Shown one piece after another: positions 10,009-34,246 of a stretch of 34,247 bases of DNA. Numbering within the stretch: the stretch's first letter is position 1; every line of letters starts with the position of its first letter. Source of the stretch: Candidatus Babeliales bacterium (GTDB lineage: Bacteria; Babelota; Babeliae; Babelales; Vermiphilaceae); assembly GCA_045863215.1 (NCBI GenBank), contig BTUB01000001.1:1-34247 (forward strand), given 5' to 3'. The position numbers were made by a program, and so were the translations under genes. The notes under the pieces were generated by a model, which saw only the letters and a list, made by a program, of their open reading frames with translations, ran no database searches and was not told where the DNA came from.

Positions 10009-10944
10009 ATGAATAAAAAAGTAATGAGTATAATCCTCCTGCTTCTTGCAGGAATTAACGGCCTTTCATTTGCACGAGGTGCTCGTGGTGGAGGCTTTGG
10101 TGGTGGCCGTGGTGGCTTTGGTGGAGGTCGCGGTGGAATCGCACGCGGTGGCGGATTTGCTGGTCGCGGATTCGGCGGGGGTAGAAGCTTTGGCGGTGGC
10201 CGTAGCTTTGGAGGAAGAAGTTTTGGTGGCGGTCGTAGTTTTGCCGGTGGAAGATCCGGATTTGCACGCCCTTCAGGATTCACCAGATCTGCAGGAATTT
10301 CAAGGCCAGGCGGTATCGCAACTCGTCCCGGGGGCATTTCTTCTAGGCCCGGTGGTATAAGCCGTCCCGGTGGAATTGGTACCCGTCCGGGTGGCATTTC
10401 TAGGCCAGGCGCCAGCACTCGTCCCGGCGGAATTTCAAGACCCGGCACTGGTACTCGTCCAGGCAGACCGGGTGATAGACCAGGAAGACCGGGCAACAGG
10501 CCAGGTAGACCAGGACATCCAGGAGATAGACCAGGTAGGCCTGGTGGACGTCATCGTGGAGACAGATTTGGTCGTCGTGGTGATAGATTTGGCCGTCGAG
10601 GAGATCGTTGGGCAGGTCGTGGCAGAAGATGGTGGGGCGGCTATTGGAATGGTGGCTGGTATGCACCAAGCTGGTGGTTATGGGGTTCATTGCCATTGTT
10701 AATCGGTGGCTTATGGTATTACAACGGTCTCACTTACCCGCAATGGCAAGAATATGCTGAATCAGATCCAGAGGTATACAATTATTACACTACCTATGTA
10801 GTACCTGCATATGAACAATATCAGGCTAATCCTTCATCAGTACAAACTAAGGATGTAGAAGTTCCAGAATATGATGATGAAGACTACAATTCAGAAGATG
10901 AAGAAGTAGAAGAAATAGAAAATAATGGAAACATTATTACGTAG
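10009..10944 (+). CDS. secreted, membrane-anchored Arg/Gly-rich repeat protein (RGG/GAR-box-like ectodomain, acidic tail)
   Basis: AGGAG upstream. After the signal peptide MNKKVMSIILLLLAGINGLSFA come four successive repeat modules: RGGGFGGGRGGFGGGRGG; GGGRSF x4; RPGGIS x~8; RPG(D/N/H) x~6; and RRGDRFG x3. These are followed by a W-rich/TM-like segment (WWLWGSLPLLIGGLWYY) and a D/E-rich C-terminus. Terminator downstream. Confidence 0.75.
   Translation: MNKKVMSIILLLLAGINGLSFARGARGGGFGGGRGGFGGGRGGIARGGGFAGRGFGGGRSFGGGRSFGGRSFGGGRSFAGGRSGFARPSGFTRSAGISRPGGIATRPGGISSRPGGISRPGGIGTRPGGISRPGASTRPGGISRPGTGTRPGRPGDRPGRPGNRPGRPGHPGDRPGRPGGRHRGDRFGRRGDRFGRRGDRWAGRGRRWWGGYWNGGWYAPSWWLWGSLPLLIGGLWYYNGLTYPQWQEYAESDPEVYNYYTTYVVPAYEQYQANPSSVQTKDVEVPEYDDEDYNSEDEEVEEIENNGNIIT
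10075..10630 (+). repeat. in-frame tandem repeat region (four repeat families) inside gene 10009-10944
   Basis: 15-21-nt periodic units encode GGRSF, RPGGIS, RPGD and RRGDRFG. The region is locally far more GC-rich than its surroundings. Confidence 0.7.
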
Positions 10945-20984: not shown

Positions 20985-21737
20985 ATGAAAAAACTACTCA
21001 TTCTTACTCTCTTATTTCCCTTTTTTACCCAGTCCATGCATCAGCCAAAATCATTGCAAGAATTGGTTGCACTAAAAGTATCAAAAATGCAGCTGAAGAG
21101 CCTTCCTTTAACCGTTCAAAATCATGTGCAGGATGTTCTTAATAAAAAGCTTTTAGAAATTATAAAAGCATCTGGGTGGAAAATTTTAAAAGATAATGAT
21201 GCGCAATATCGATGCAATCTTACTGAGATTCAGGCCATATTAATCGCAGGCGCTGACCCCAATTATATTAATTCCGAAACAACCATTCCTATTCTTAATG
21301 ATGCATTAGAATGCATCAAACCCTATGCTGAATGGCAAGCTTCATCTCACCCTGAAACAGATCGATACGAAGTATTAAAACTACTTCTCTCTCATGGTGC
21401 AAATTCTGATATAAGAACTAATCCAATGCTCATACCTTTTTTGTGGGCAGCGAAAAAAAATATTCATGCGACACAAATATTTTTAGAACATGGAGCAGAC
21501 CCAAATCAGATTGGATGCCAAGGTTGCCCACTCACACACAACCTATTATTTGATATATGTGCCTATACTAATGGTGAACCTGTTAAAGTGGCTCAATTAC
21601 TCCTGCAATATGGTGCTGATCCGTTACATCCAAGAATTGATAAAAATGCAAAGAATGCTTTATGGAATGCACAAGAGTGGAGAAATACCCATCTCATTTC
21701 CTTGTATGAAAAAGGCGGCATGCAAAAAATTCTTTAA
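20985..21737 (+). CDS. ankyrin-repeat protein with signal-peptide-like N-terminus
   Basis: Four ANK-type repeat ends are present: LIAGADPN, LLLSHGANSD, FLEHGADPN and LLLQYGADP. The N-terminus is MKKLLILTLLFPFFTQS. Confidence 0.85.
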   Translation: MKKLLILTLLFPFFTQSMHQPKSLQELVALKVSKMQLKSLPLTVQNHVQDVLNKKLLEIIKASGWKILKDNDAQYRCNLTEIQAILIAGADPNYINSETTIPILNDALECIKPYAEWQASSHPETDRYEVLKLLLSHGANSDIRTNPMLIPFLWAAKKNIHATQIFLEHGADPNQIGCQGCPLTHNLLFDICAYTNGEPVKVAQLLLQYGADPLHPRIDKNAKNALWNAQEWRNTHLISLYEKGGMQKIL

Positions 21738-30159: not shown

Positions 30160-30183
30160 CTTTTTTCATCACATCAATTTATA

Positions 30184-30212
30184 AGGCCCCAGTAATTCTG
30201 GGGCCTTTTTTT
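30184..30212 (+). terminator. intrinsic terminator closing the lipoprotein operon
   Basis: AGGCCCCAG-TAATT-CTGGGGCCT (9-bp stem) followed by TTTTTTT. Confidence 0.75.
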
Positions 30213-30288: not shown

Positions 30289-33003
30289 ATGAAAATTCAT
30301 CCAAGAAAATTGCTTGGGCTTTTGATTATAGTCTTTATTATTCCTTACAAGGTTTTGGCAGTCGCTCTAACGAATTGCATTCCTTATCTTATAGAAATTG
30401 CCAAGCAAGCTTTATTAAGTTTAGCGCTTATTACTGGCTATTTAGTAAATACGAAGCCCGAATTCCCTTCGCAAGCAGATTCAATTGAGCATCAGGGAAT
30501 AAAAAATACTTATCTAAATCAATTTCTGCAAGATATAGCTAAACAAACGGGGGTGATAATAACACCTGAAACATTAAATCAACTGAGCAATGCTGGCATA
30601 CATCATGATTACCAAAAACTTGAAAGTCTTTTGGCGACATTACAGCCCACTGATAAGAACTTAAGCTCTTCCGCTGGTACTTTTAGCCTACAAAAATCTG
30701 AAATTAATCCCTATGCGCTTGCTAGAGGAATTAAACGATTTGAACAGCCAGGAGCTTATACACAAATAACAAACGGCAGCATACCAGACTATAACTCAAC
30801 AATAACAAGGGTTCAAACGTCTTCGACTGCATCAAAAAATACAGCTGATCCTGTCTTAACTGATATTCATTCTTTGCAATACAGTAATTTCGGTGAATAT
30901 TCAAATGAACTATCTATTCCTAATCCAGCTAACCCCACACTTGTTCTGCATGGTAATCATCAAAGCCCTCAAAAGAATCAAAGTGCTGCTCGATATATGC
31001 ATCAATTGATGCATCAGCAGGCCGTATACTCTCAAGGGAAAGCGTTTCATGAGTGGGAAAGAGCATTTTTTTCAGTCGCTGCTCACTTTCATAACTCTAC
31101 GCTCCGCCAACAGTTAAAAAAACATGTTCAAAGTTATCACAAAGTTCTTCATGATGCATGTCAACTTGGAGCATCAGCTCAAGCCATACAAGCACAAACG
31201 CAAATCGCTCTTCAAGGATTACCGCTTCCTGGTTTTTTACATGAATTTTCTGAAGTTCTTCAAGAAAAAGCCTCACGCATCTGTTTTAAACATAATGGCA
31301 CCTGGAAAGGTATTGAGACTTCAACTCAATTAGAAGAACTTAAGCAAGTATGCCAGGCTTATCAAACTCTTTTAGATAAACTCTCGTGGCATCTTGAATG
31401 GGAAAATTCAACCGATGCTCAAGACTGCATTGAAGAACTTTATTTGTTGGATCAAGGTAGAGGAAATTGGGCAGGTAGATTTTTTTCATGGATGGGAAAC
31501 TTTTTTGATAGCGAAGCTATTTCTTTGCAAGAATTTCAATCTCGAATTGCTACCAATTCTTTTAATAAACAAACATTTACTGCACTTGAACTCTTAGAAA
31601 ACAAAGAGTTCAAATTGGCACGATTACCGCTTGAACATATGGCACATTCTGCCAAAACAGTTAATGAGGTCTTGCTCCATCAAGCCCTTCTTAAACAATA
31701 CCAAGAAAAAATAGCATTCCACTATGGCAATACTAATATCCCTCTCAAATATCAAGACGATCCAGTCTTTTGGATGTATAAACCAACAACTGAACACATG
31801 CAATTCGATGATCCGGCACTAAGATCAATCGAAAATCATTTAATAATCCGCGATACAATATACAATGAAATATTGAATACTATTTGCAAAAAGCAACCGC
31901 CAACCCCATTCATTCGAAATCTCGCCTATACTCTTATAGATAAATTAAATGACCCTATTGCCCTCATTAATCATCTTGAGTTTTTAAGCTCAGATAGCCA
32001 AAATCCTGAAATCCAACAAGCTTGCAACGCTTTCTATGATAAAGGCGTTTTAACTCTATTTGGGCTTACTAAACAGGCCTCTGCCTCTCGCGTGCCAGTC
32101 TCAGATCTACTTAATCGATCCGAATATGCTCACATAAGAAACGCTTTGAATAAACTATTATTGGTAGATGCTCGCAGTGAGCAAAGCAAAAGATCGTTGC
32201 AGCTAGTGTTTGATTGTATACCACATGCATGTACCGATACTACTTTTTCAAAAGACTATCAAAATATCATTAAAGCAATCACTCAAGCCCATATTGACGC
32301 TAAAGCTCCTAAAGAGATTCTGCACATTAGTTGTTTTCCCATCAATCCGACAAAGGATTTACATATAACTCTTTTAAAAGCAATGTCCAAAGCGGCACAA
32401 GAAGACCTGGGAAAAGCCAATCCTGCAGCAAATTCACCCCTTACCACACGTGAGGCTTGGGCTTGCATACAAAAAGTGCAAGAGCTAGAAAATAGCGGTG
32501 AAACTGCTGAAGCAAACGCCTTAGCTAATACATATCTCAAGGGCTATCTCGATGAAAAAATGCCAACTCAAAAGTATATAAAGCCAATTATTATTACTGC
32601 CGCGACCGCCGGAATTTGGTTTGCCAATTCGCAAGAGCAACCAAAACAAACACCTAAAATCTCCCCGCAATTCTCTGTGAACTCCCCTGATCCCGATGAT
32701 GAGGAAAGCGAGGAGATAAAAAAATATAGAAGCATACTGAAAGAAATTTTAAAAGATGCAATACAAGGAAATAAAACTCGTGGCAAATCAAAAATTTATG
32801 AAAAATTAGGAGGATTTAAAAAAGCAGTGAAAGATTTTTTAAGGTTGAATCCCACTGAAATAAAAGATATTCCTACCGGAAAAACCGGAAAACTTCCAGA
32901 TGAAAATCATGTAAATGTACGCACAAAAAGTGATGATGGAAGGCCAACTTTAGAAATTATTAACTTAATAAATAAAAACAGAATTAAAATCAGATATAAC
33001 TAA
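30289..33003 (+). CDS. large (904 aa) membrane protein with helical body, late TM segment, acidic linker and toxin-like ~100-aa C-terminal module
   Basis: AGGAG upstream. There are N-terminal TM segments (LLGLLIIVFIIPYKVLAVAL; LLSLALITGYLV) and a late TM segment (IKPIIITAATAGIWFA), then the linker SPDPDDEESEE. The C-terminal module is GNKTRGKSKIYEKLGGFKKAVKDFLRLNPTEIKDIPTGKTGKLPDENHVNVRTKSDDGRPTLEI...IKIRYN. Confidence 0.65.
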   Translation: MKIHPRKLLGLLIIVFIIPYKVLAVALTNCIPYLIEIAKQALLSLALITGYLVNTKPEFPSQADSIEHQGIKNTYLNQFLQDIAKQTGVIITPETLNQLSNAGIHHDYQKLESLLATLQPTDKNLSSSAGTFSLQKSEINPYALARGIKRFEQPGAYTQITNGSIPDYNSTITRVQTSSTASKNTADPVLTDIHSLQYSNFGEYSNELSIPNPANPTLVLHGNHQSPQKNQSAARYMHQLMHQQAVYSQGKAFHEWERAFFSVAAHFHNSTLRQQLKKHVQSYHKVLHDACQLGASAQAIQAQTQIALQGLPLPGFLHEFSEVLQEKASRICFKHNGTWKGIETSTQLEELKQVCQAYQTLLDKLSWHLEWENSTDAQDCIEELYLLDQGRGNWAGRFFSWMGNFFDSEAISLQEFQSRIATNSFNKQTFTALELLENKEFKLARLPLEHMAHSAKTVNEVLLHQALLKQYQEKIAFHYGNTNIPLKYQDDPVFWMYKPTTEHMQFDDPALRSIENHLIIRDTIYNEILNTICKKQPPTPFIRNLAYTLIDKLNDPIALINHLEFLSSDSQNPEIQQACNAFYDKGVLTLFGLTKQASASRVPVSDLLNRSEYAHIRNALNKLLLVDARSEQSKRSLQLVFDCIPHACTDTTFSKDYQNIIKAITQAHIDAKAPKEILHISCFPINPTKDLHITLLKAMSKAAQEDLGKANPAANSPLTTREAWACIQKVQELENSGETAEANALANTYLKGYLDEKMPTQKYIKPIIITAATAGIWFANSQEQPKQTPKISPQFSVNSPDPDDEESEEIKKYRSILKEILKDAIQGNKTRGKSKIYEKLGGFKKAVKDFLRLNPTEIKDIPTGKTGKLPDENHVNVRTKSDDGRPTLEIINLINKNRIKIRYN

Positions 33004-33015
33004 CTAGGATAAAAA

Positions 33016-33417
33016 ATGCAAGAAACATGGACCCGCTGGGAACCAATAACTCGCCTATCACACAATTATTATTGTGAATCACTAATAGACACTCCAGATG
33101 ACGGATTTCAAATACGTTTATTCGATGAAGAAGGTAAAAAACTTTTAATTTCATTTTCTGAATCAGTAGATGCATATCGTAGTACGGATGGCAGCTTTTC
33201 ATATGATACAATTGAAAGTTTAGAAAAAAAATATGGTAAAGAATTTTATTCTACATGGAGTTTTTTTAAAATTGAAAATTCTGAATTTTTAGAATGGATT
33301 AAAAAAGAATCACAGGGAACATTTGAAATATATCAATTGCAGCATTTTTGCTTTTGGACAATAGATTGCAGAATTGATGTAATTAATAATTACGATCCCG
33401 AAATAAAGCATATTTAA
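33016..33417 (+). CDS. small cytoplasmic protein, immunity-protein-like position
   Basis: 133-aa ORF starting 12 nt after the 904-aa gene. It has no signal peptide and is acidic. Assignment is by position and size only. Confidence 0.5.
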   Translation: MQETWTRWEPITRLSHNYYCESLIDTPDDGFQIRLFDEEGKKLLISFSESVDAYRSTDGSFSYDTIESLEKKYGKEFYSTWSFFKIENSEFLEWIKKESQGTFEIYQLQHFCFWTIDCRIDVINNYDPEIKHI

Positions 33418-33502: not shown

Positions 33503-34246
33503 ATGAAATACTCACTCGTATTATTACTCAGCATCTTTAGTTTTGCTTACGCCAACTCCCCGTTCCAAGAATTTCAAAGCGACTATGATCATGATGCAGA
33601 AATAGATAAGTCCTGGAATGAACATTATGAAAAAGCAAATACTTCGAGCATTAGTTCACAAAGTGTACCAACATCTGGCATTTTAGCAGATGAAATTTTA
33701 ACCGCAAAACGCAAACCACTTGATCCTGAACTTGCTGAACTTGTAATAAATATGTCATCTGAAGATCCTCGCAAGCTAGCTCTAATAATACAAGAATGCG
33801 CGCAAGATCCTAGTGAAAAGTGCCCGCCAAGGGTCCTCTTGGTAGGTGCTCCAGGTATTGGAAAAACAACTTATATACAAGCTGTCTCGGAAAAAGCTCA
33901 TATTCCTCTTACAATAATTAATGCGCCATTTGTATCGGATAAATATAAAGATTCAGGGCCAGAAAATCTTAAAGCTATTTTTAAATCTCTTTTGCAAACC
34001 AAAAGGAAAATTATTATAGCTATTGATGAACTGCATTGCCTTACCGATGGCCACAAAAATAGTAATGACCCAAACCCAAACACTGCCGCAGCACTTTGGA
34101 AATTAGTAGACCAATGTCGAGAGAATCCTAATATTATTTTAATAGGTATCATGAATTATGCTTCCAATATGCCTGAACAGCTGAAAAGTAGATTTGAAAA
34201 ATACATATGTCTCATGACATCTTCAGATGAAATTACTCAAATACAG
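33503..34246 (+). CDS. AAA+ ATPase with signal-peptide-like N-terminus (3' end outside window)
   Basis: My own translation from the ATG at 33503 (AGGAG 8 nt upstream) is open to the window edge. It begins MKYSLVLLLSIFSFAYA and contains Walker A (LLVGAPGIGKTT) and Walker B (IIIAIDELH). It is absent from the ORF track because there is no stop codon. Confidence 0.75.
   Translation, partial: MKYSLVLLLSIFSFAYANSPFQEFQSDYDHDAEIDKSWNEHYEKANTSSISSQSVPTSGILADEILTAKRKPLDPELAELVINMSSEDPRKLALIIQECAQDPSEKCPPRVLLVGAPGIGKTTYIQAVSEKAHIPLTIINAPFVSDKYKDSGPENLKAIFKSLLQTKRKIIIAIDELHCLTDGHKNSNDPNPNTAAALWKLVDQCRENPNIILIGIMNYASNMPEQLKSRFEKYICLMTSSDEITQIQ

Follow-up and report, generated by a model that had tools for sequence, protein, structure and literature searches.

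The window analysed here is a 34,247-nucleotide (nt) stretch of contig BTUB01000001.1. Near its 3' end, on the plus strand, a gene for a protein of 904 amino acids (aa) is followed directly by a gene for a protein of 133 aa. Judged from sequence and gene arrangement, there is high confidence that the two form a toxin-immunity pair of the polymorphic kind. The fuller assignment is also very likely, with the 904-aa protein as a polymorphic toxin used in interbacterial competition and the 133-aa protein as its cognate immunity protein. The C-terminal ~95 residues of the larger protein, termed module A, are the putative toxin tip and the first ~830 residues are referred to as the carrier scaffold. 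A sequence-only reading of the window had proposed a polymorphic toxin-immunity pair, and this interpretation was borne out by a C-terminal swap among homologues together with a co-varying downstream gene.

Only 11 homologues of the 904-aa protein were found in a search of 5.8 billion proteins, with identities of 42-63%. All 11 have in common an N-terminal hydrophobic region, a body of ~700 residues, a short hydrophobic segment and an acidic linker. Module A was kept in six of the 11 while five carried a Pfam Ntox21 (PF15526) tip (E 1e-22 to 6e-22). Homologues P0005, P0007, P0009 and P0010 scored 78-81 bits against PF15526, and neither the window protein nor its module matched this family at E≤1. 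The two tip classes were alignable through the motif ...G(D/N)KT(K/R)GKSK and were unrelated beyond it. On these alignments the difference in tip on a shared body is C-terminal polymorphism in the strict sense, and the junction motif probably served as the recombination site. Ntox21 is the Enterobacter cloacae CdiA-CT class of RNase toxin.

Six-frame scans of all fetched loci used profiles for module A, for the 133-aa family, for the Ntox21 tail and for the ~175-aa open reading frames (ORFs) that come after Ntox21. Module A was followed by a 133-aa-family gene within 8-35 nt in every copy found (11/11), covering four scaffold types and two decayed orphans. Every Ntox21 copy, the orphan fragment included, was followed next by a gene of the ~175-aa family, which is unrelated to the 133-aa family. 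The sequence-only reading had looked to homologues for C-terminal module swapping and for a linked downstream small ORF. Both were present, and the partner gene was specific to the tip. The ~175-aa ORFs (L001:8849-10573, L010:6256-6771) are paralogues with 44-72% identity and are present in three copies in L001. The family had no Pfam match and is a candidate for a new family of Ntox21 immunity proteins, separate from Imm41 and Imm-Barstar.

Displaced cassettes were visible in two loci. The gene order in L001 is an Ntox21 carrier, two ~175-aa genes, a 5'-truncated orphan Ntox21 fragment (L001:9886-10050), a third ~175-aa gene, a decayed module A (10615-10794), an intact 135-aa member of the 133-aa family and an AAA ATPase. 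The decayed module A reads ...SNKTKSREYKKI, an in-frame stop, then AMNDFEKLNLSN...VVVRYTSKRGEPILEMF...IIRYT. Its motifs are degraded and it has its own copy of the junction motif (NKTKSREYKK). A second orphan module A (L010:8818-8991) lies directly upstream of an intact 133-aa-family gene, and no orphan tip was present in the window itself. The simplest reading of the L001 and L010 orphans is cassette displacement. An Ntox21 tip with its immunity gene would have recombined in at the junction motif, pushing the old tip and immunity gene downstream, where the useless tip would decay and the still-useful immunity gene would be kept. Displacement of tips with retention of immunity genes is known behaviour of contact-dependent growth inhibition (CDI) and Rhs loci (Zhang et al. 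2012, PMC3482391). A lone 133-aa-family member was also seen in a Candidatus Babeliaceae metagenome-assembled genome (MAG) among housekeeping genes for tRNA synthetases and YbeY (L007:6001-6417). It has no module A upstream and looks like an orphan immunity gene kept without its toxin.

The module A family extends well beyond this scaffold. A module A profile searched against 1.84 billion representative proteins (clusters at 50% identity) matched 1,432 representative clusters at E≤1e-3, of which 571 remained at E≤1e-10. In 153 of 159 carriers the module ended no more than 10 residues from the C-terminus. The carriers ranged in length from 59 to 2,093 residues. The regions N-terminal of it formed at least 15 unrelated clusters. 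The largest of these (47) includes P0101, the second (15) includes RHS-repeat proteins and the third (9) is the carrier type of the window. The PT-HINT matches of P0101 and P0213 were weak and below the cut-off. P0179 is a protein of 1,654 aa with 23 RHS repeats and a module A tip. Orenia marismortui (L006) encodes a 406-aa RHS-repeat protein with the motif DPYGL ~150 residues before its end and a module A tip (E 2e-28), and a 133-aa-family gene lies 35 nt 3' of it. In L008 a 573-aa carrier with a faint PT-HINT match and a module A tip is followed by two tandem 133-aa-family genes, with a Tox-HNH-EHHH toxin gene nearby. A third carrier type in L009 again showed the pairing of module A with the 133-aa family. 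A pre-module motif of approximately t-v-E-D-I-l-x-x-a-x-P-G-x-e-T-K-G-K-t-K-Q-y-E-K-p-G-G was present in all carrier types.

A hydrophobic 17-mer was found within 120 residues upstream of module A in about half of the carriers (61/128). In many short carriers (e.g., P0105, P0111, P0113, P0130, and P0152) a glycine-rich, glycine-zipper-like hydrophobic segment lies shortly before module A, and this may be a membrane-entry element which travels with the tip. Three long proteins (P0213, P0226, and P0235; 1,558-2,093 aa) have module A in an internal position (around residues 255-358) with more than 1,200 residues after it, and in P0213 it sits after a HINT/intein-like region. These could be gene fusions, cases of stop read-through or mis-called genes.

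The tail of the window module was confirmed as ...KIYEKLGGFKKAVKDFLRLNPTEIKDIPTGKTGKLPDENHVNVRTKSDDGRPTLEI...IKIRYN. The module is basic, with an isoelectric point (pI) of 9.99 compared to a family median of 9.6. The conserved motif described in the sequence-only reading is real: K839, G841, A846, D849, F850, G864, G867, L869, V877, R878, S881, T887-L-E889-I, K900, and R902-Y903 were each conserved in 88-100% of the 159 carriers. Ten polar residues are conserved at this level (K839, D849, D871, R878, S881, T887, E889, K900, R902, and Y903). No conserved His or Cys was present, which speaks against an HNH nuclease, a deaminase or a papain-like peptidase, and a domain of this size is too small for an ADP-ribosyltransferase.

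Module A was modelled from a 50-sequence alignment with a mean predicted local distance difference test (pLDDT) of 94.8 and a predicted template-modelling score (pTM) of 0.85. Based on strand alternation, N876/R878, T887/E889 and K900/R902 would lie on one face of the sheet, with K839, D849, S881 and Y903 probably nearby. The only high-probability Foldseek matches were to teneurin-2 (PDB 9g42, 6vhh, and 6fb3; probability 0.97-0.99, E ~0.1), with a template-modelling score (TM-score) of ~0.6 on the query, a root mean square deviation (rmsd) of 3.5-4.8 Å over 95-101 columns and 16-19% identity; this likeness is without sequence-level support. From its secondary-structure content the matched teneurin region looks likelier to be the antibiotic-binding-like domain than Tox-GHH. 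The BECR folds (barnase, EndoU, colicin E5/D, and RelE) gave no PDB match with a probability above 0.15, and MqsR was matched at 0.13. Nothing significant was found among viral structures with Foldseek. PDB matches to a complex I subunit and a nucleotidyltransferase were rejected due to an rmsd of ~10 Å. Designed TPR/PPR proteins were all that the PDB profile searches returned and were considered an artefact, as the short motif Y-K-G-Y--A--DF-K-L-P-N had been summed repeatedly with no significant single stretch. The first helix-turn of all members (residues 836-856), Y-E-K-x-G-G-Y-E-x-A-x-x-D-F-x-K-L-N-P-x-N, mimics the TPR/PPR repeat consensus.

The 133-aa protein is acidic (pI 4.63, 25 D+E compared to 14 K+R; family median pI 4.9) and lacks an N-terminal hydrophobic leader. 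Its family has 84 members, among them a protein of a Candidatus Babeliaceae MAG and another of Orenia marismortui, a free-living Firmicute. The model of the protein (pLDDT 93.7) is a mixed alpha/beta domain. No PDB relative was found by sequence or fold (best TM-score 0.25). The protein kinases returned by Foldseek had TM-scores of 0.25 or less and were dismissed as meaningless.

The proposed mechanism begins with export of the carrier, which would be anchored in the membrane by its N-terminal hydrophobic region and would present or release the tip to neighboring cells. Entry may be aided by the short hydrophobic segment that precedes the tip. In the target cytoplasm the tip would most likely attack nucleic acid, probably RNA, by means of R878, T887, E889, K900, and R902, with K839, D849, S881, and Y903 close by. 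The acidic cytoplasmic 133-aa protein would bind and block the basic toxin, protecting the producer. New tips would be gained by recombination at the conserved ...PG.eTKGK.K... motif. A nucleic-acid target is suggested by the charge of the tip and by its conserved Arg, Glu, Lys and Tyr. A metal-independent nuclease would fit best with a basic tip, an acidic inhibitor and these residues on the sheet face, and RNA would be the likelier substrate.

Several results weigh against this account. No known toxin family matched module A by sequence in Pfam, NCBIfam or the PDB sequences, and 50 diverse members searched against Pfam and NCBIfam gave no consistent family. No RNase or DNase fold in the PDB was matched by the module A model with Foldseek. 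The sequence-only reading had seen a likeness to nuclease/RNase Tox/Ntox families, and this was left unconfirmed by Pfam, NCBIfam and the solved RNases. Since there is no family match, the toxin call rests on genomic context and not on family similarity. A nuclease activity is regarded as possible rather than probable because no RNase or DNase fold was found. No known immunity family (Imm*, SUKH, barstar, or others) matched the 133-aa family by sequence, and 58 of its members gave single chance matches only to Pfam and NCBIfam. The carrier and its homologues have no secretion or trafficking domain recognised by Pfam or NCBIfam, with Ntox21 being the sole match. The 133-aa family is present at every locus of the window's scaffold type, so from that lineage alone a scaffold-linked accessory role would be possible; this role is excluded because the pairing also occurs on other scaffolds and with orphans. 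Finally, the window copy has E872 where 152 of the 159 carriers (96%) have Gly in the LPDG turn, and N873 where 76% have Arg (LPDEN compared to LPDGR; 32902-32907).

These two substitutions raise the question of whether the window tip may be weakened. The system would then still be of the polymorphic kind, with an attenuated or inactive tip at a locus retained chiefly for its immunity function. This is compatible with the toxin-immunity explanation and is regarded as improbable. The ten strongly conserved polar residues are intact and the reading frame is uninterrupted. Variation at this turn is also seen in the closest homologues (LPDGK, LLSGI, and LPGGA), and the model, though alignment-based, is confident there. 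The sequence-only reading had also suggested a host-directed effector. In the form considered here, an intracellular parasite would use the module against its eukaryotic host cell, and the 133-aa protein would be a secretion chaperone. The genome is probably from Dependentiae/Babeliales, as indicated by its glucose-6-phosphate dehydrogenase (G6PD) and by the immunity-family member from such a MAG. An ankyrin-repeat protein is encoded in the window (20985-21737), and most toxin domains of intracellular bacteria are reported to target the host (Zhang et al. 2012, PMC3482391). However, RHS-repeat and PT-HINT carriers in unrelated bacteria, among them that of free-living Orenia marismortui, have the same pair, and host-directed toxins are typically without such partners (PMC3482391). 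Tip-specific partners that co-vary with the tip, tandem immunity copies and orphan cassettes are signatures of bacterial conflict. A host-directed effector is thus considered very unlikely.

The extreme C-terminal position of module A in very diverse proteins could also be that of a sorting or adaptor domain resembling C-terminal secretion tags, with the 133-aa protein as a dedicated adaptor or chaperone. The module has no recognisable catalytic fold and its sole structural likeness is to a non-catalytic part of teneurin-2. Nevertheless, homologues exchange module A at the same position for the recognised toxin Ntox21, which has a different partner gene. In the RHS protein of Orenia marismortui module A lies downstream of DPxGL, and the position after DPxGL in RHS proteins is that of the toxic cargo. 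Orphan tips decay while their partner genes stay intact, as expected of a toxin and its immunity gene and not of a tag and its chaperone, and ten polar residues conserved at 88-100% fit an active site. A sorting domain was accordingly given very little credence. The toxin-immunity pair of the polymorphic kind is retained as the explanation of the locus.

The features of the locus are listed in Table 1. The sequence-only reading had described the two ORFs, the 12-nt gap between them and the acidic, leaderless nature of the smaller product, and all of these were confirmed. The toxin stop codon TAA is at 33001-33003 and the immunity ATG starts at 33016, leaving exactly 12 nt, CTAGGATAAAAA, between them. 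No terminator was found in this gap by scanning, and the locus, junction included, recurred with zero differences in contigs from three bioreactor metagenome samples. The two genes are probably translationally coupled and, judging from gene spacing, co-transcribed. The predicted hairpin directly 3' of the last lipoprotein paralogue gene and 5' of the toxin gene marks the toxin gene as the first of a separate transcription unit. The locus is chromosomal and lies downstream of PGI, G6PD and 6PGD genes, a peptidase S9 gene and an array of lipoprotein paralogues. This upstream synteny, from PGI to the lipoprotein array, is common to L001, L003, and L011 and is not found in L004. The lipoprotein array was rejected as part of the system, as it is absent upstream of the L004 locus and is divided from the toxin gene by the terminator-like hairpin. 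The nearest named match of the window G6PD was from a Dependentiae/Babeliales MAG (58% identity). In a species-level genome collection one carrier relative only was found, from a MAG. The carrier type occurs in a small group of uncultured bacteria, likely Dependentiae/Babeliales.

Table 1. Coordinates of the toxin-immunity locus and its signals in the window.
Feature	Position	Strand	Remarks
Terminator-like hairpin	30183..30207	+	10-bp stem, 7 G-C pairs, T-run; consensus scan only
Polymorphic toxin gene (very likely), 904 aa	30289..33003	+	Conserved scaffold and exchangeable C-terminal module
N-terminal hydrophobic region, residues ~5-53	30301..30447	+	Hydropathy; kept in all homologues
Scaffold body, residues ~54-765	30448..32583	+	42-63% identity in 11 homologues; no Pfam/NCBIfam domain
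Short Gly/Ala/Thr-rich hydrophobic segment, residues 766-779	32584..32625	+	PIIITAATAGIWFA
Pro-rich acidic linker, residues 783-807	32635..32709	+	With DPDDEES
Putative toxin module A, residues 808-904 (~95 aa)	32710..33000	+	Helix a1, strand b1, helix a2, strands b2-b6
Junction motif NKTRGKSK, residues 828-835	32770..32793	+	Ntox21 variants alignable to here, divergent after
Shine-Dalgarno-like AGGA	33006..33009	+	6 nt ahead of immunity ATG
Candidate cognate immunity gene, 133 aa, acidic, cytoplasmic	33016..33417	+	84-member family, 3' of every module A copy examined
AAA ATPase	33503..34246	+	Signal-like N-terminus; runs off window end

The N-terminal hydrophobic region of the carrier consists of a signal-peptide-like or transmembrane segment followed by a second amphipathic or hydrophobic helix. 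It presumably serves Sec export and/or membrane anchoring, and the scaffold body is presumed to be a trafficking or presentation domain. No RHS/YD repeats and no DPxGL cleavage motif were found in the window carrier, unlike other module A carriers (L006 and P0179). The acidic Pro/Asp/Glu linker named in the sequence-only reading is real, with residues 801-809 reading DPDDEESEE. The transmembrane segment named with it is present only in part as described: a segment exists at residues 766-779, but it is short (~14 residues) and moderately hydrophobic, with a Kyte-Doolittle mean below 1.5 in a 19-residue window. It could plausibly span the membrane. The segment belongs to the scaffold because it is common to the Ntox21 variants.

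All seven loci of the carrier type (7/7), including L004 and the distant L005 (35% identity), have an AAA ATPase gene 3' of the cassette array. The N-terminus of the ATPase, MKYSLVLLLSIFSFAYA|NS, resembles a signal peptide that could be cleaved. Since export of an AAA ATPase would be unusual, the protein may be membrane-anchored and linked to toxin export. Speculatively, it could take part in the export or extraction of a membrane-anchored toxin. As the carrier has no known secretion domain, it points to an undescribed export or delivery mechanism, and the scaffold together with the AAA ATPase suggests such a route.

Relative to Pfam and NCBIfam, which were the catalogues searched, both the toxin and the immunity families are new, as is the carrier, with an AAA ATPase linked to it, in a lineage that is probably intracellular-parasitic. 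Of the nine 'PT' toxins described by Nachmias et al., PT1 and PT7 have been solved as immunity complexes, and PDB searches with module A matched no toxin-immunity structure. If the assignment is correct, a widespread toxin-immunity pair which was missed by Pfam and NCBIfam and has no solved structure is added to the polymorphic-toxin repertoire. Since both families are uncatalogued and without a solved structure, it would become possible to interpret many C-termini that are now labelled 'hypothetical' in RHS and HINT proteins. A lineage thought to be intracellular-parasitic would keep an actively recombining interbacterial weapon with its immunity genes, implying that strains compete inside host cells or around them. 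At 95 and 133 residues the two proteins are small, their models are of high confidence, and the pair can be tested directly in laboratory E. coli. A broader scenario is doubtful and is put forward as conjecture. Module A and the 133-aa protein would have new toxin and immunity folds, with the toxin related to a teneurin extra-shell C-terminal domain inherited from YD toxins. The scaffold and AAA ATPase would be an undescribed delivery route, and obligate intracellular Dependentiae would fight co-infecting rivals within one host cell.

Module A has some likeness to the BECR RNase toxins (barnase, colicin E5/D, and RelE/YoeB). Both are small basic alpha+beta domains with an acidic inhibitor partner, and the conserved Arg, Glu, Lys and Tyr of module A may share one sheet face. 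At its extreme C-terminus module A also has an Arg-Tyr pair, a feature of YoeB and RelE as well. Its topology, a1-b1-a2-b2..b6, departs from the canonical one, however, and the likeness is one of functional analogy only. The Foldseek likeness to teneurin-2 concerns an animal protein. Teneurins descend from bacterial YD toxins, and outside their shell lie two domains, one antibiotic-binding-like and one Tox-GHH. Module A is also found on bacterial RHS/YD proteins, and on the modelled fold it is possible that the module and part of the C-terminal region of teneurin share an origin in bacterial YD-toxin tips.

Ntox21 (PF15526) occupies the same position in five homologues, with its own immunity genes next to it, and is a small basic C-terminal tip like module A. 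The two have no sequence relationship and their partner genes are unrelated. Their conserved motifs differ too, with a His and two Asp in Ntox21 (Zhang et al. 2012, PMC3482391) and no conserved His in module A.

In intracellular bacteria mostly toxins without immunity genes have been reported, Odyssella being one of the rare exceptions (Zhang et al. 2012, PMC3482391). This agrees with the sequence-only reading, which had called such a pair unusual in a host-associated genome. A literature search on polymorphic toxins in Dependentiae found nothing relevant. The system described here differs from the established polymorphic toxin systems in its host, as the lineage is probably an obligate intracellular parasite, where immunity-paired systems are reported to be rare (PMC3482391). 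It also differs in its carrier, which is without RHS, HINT, filamentous-haemagglutinin, LXG, PAAR or other known trafficking domains, and in its toxin and immunity domains, which are in neither Pfam nor NCBIfam. In its organization it resembles the Rhs/YD, CDI (CdiA-CT/CdiI), PT-HINT and LXG systems (PMC3482391). As in these, a carrier bears an exchangeable C-terminal toxin with a tip-specific immunity gene directly downstream, the same tip is found on unrelated carriers, and a junction motif before the tip is accompanied by orphan cassettes and tandem immunity copies.

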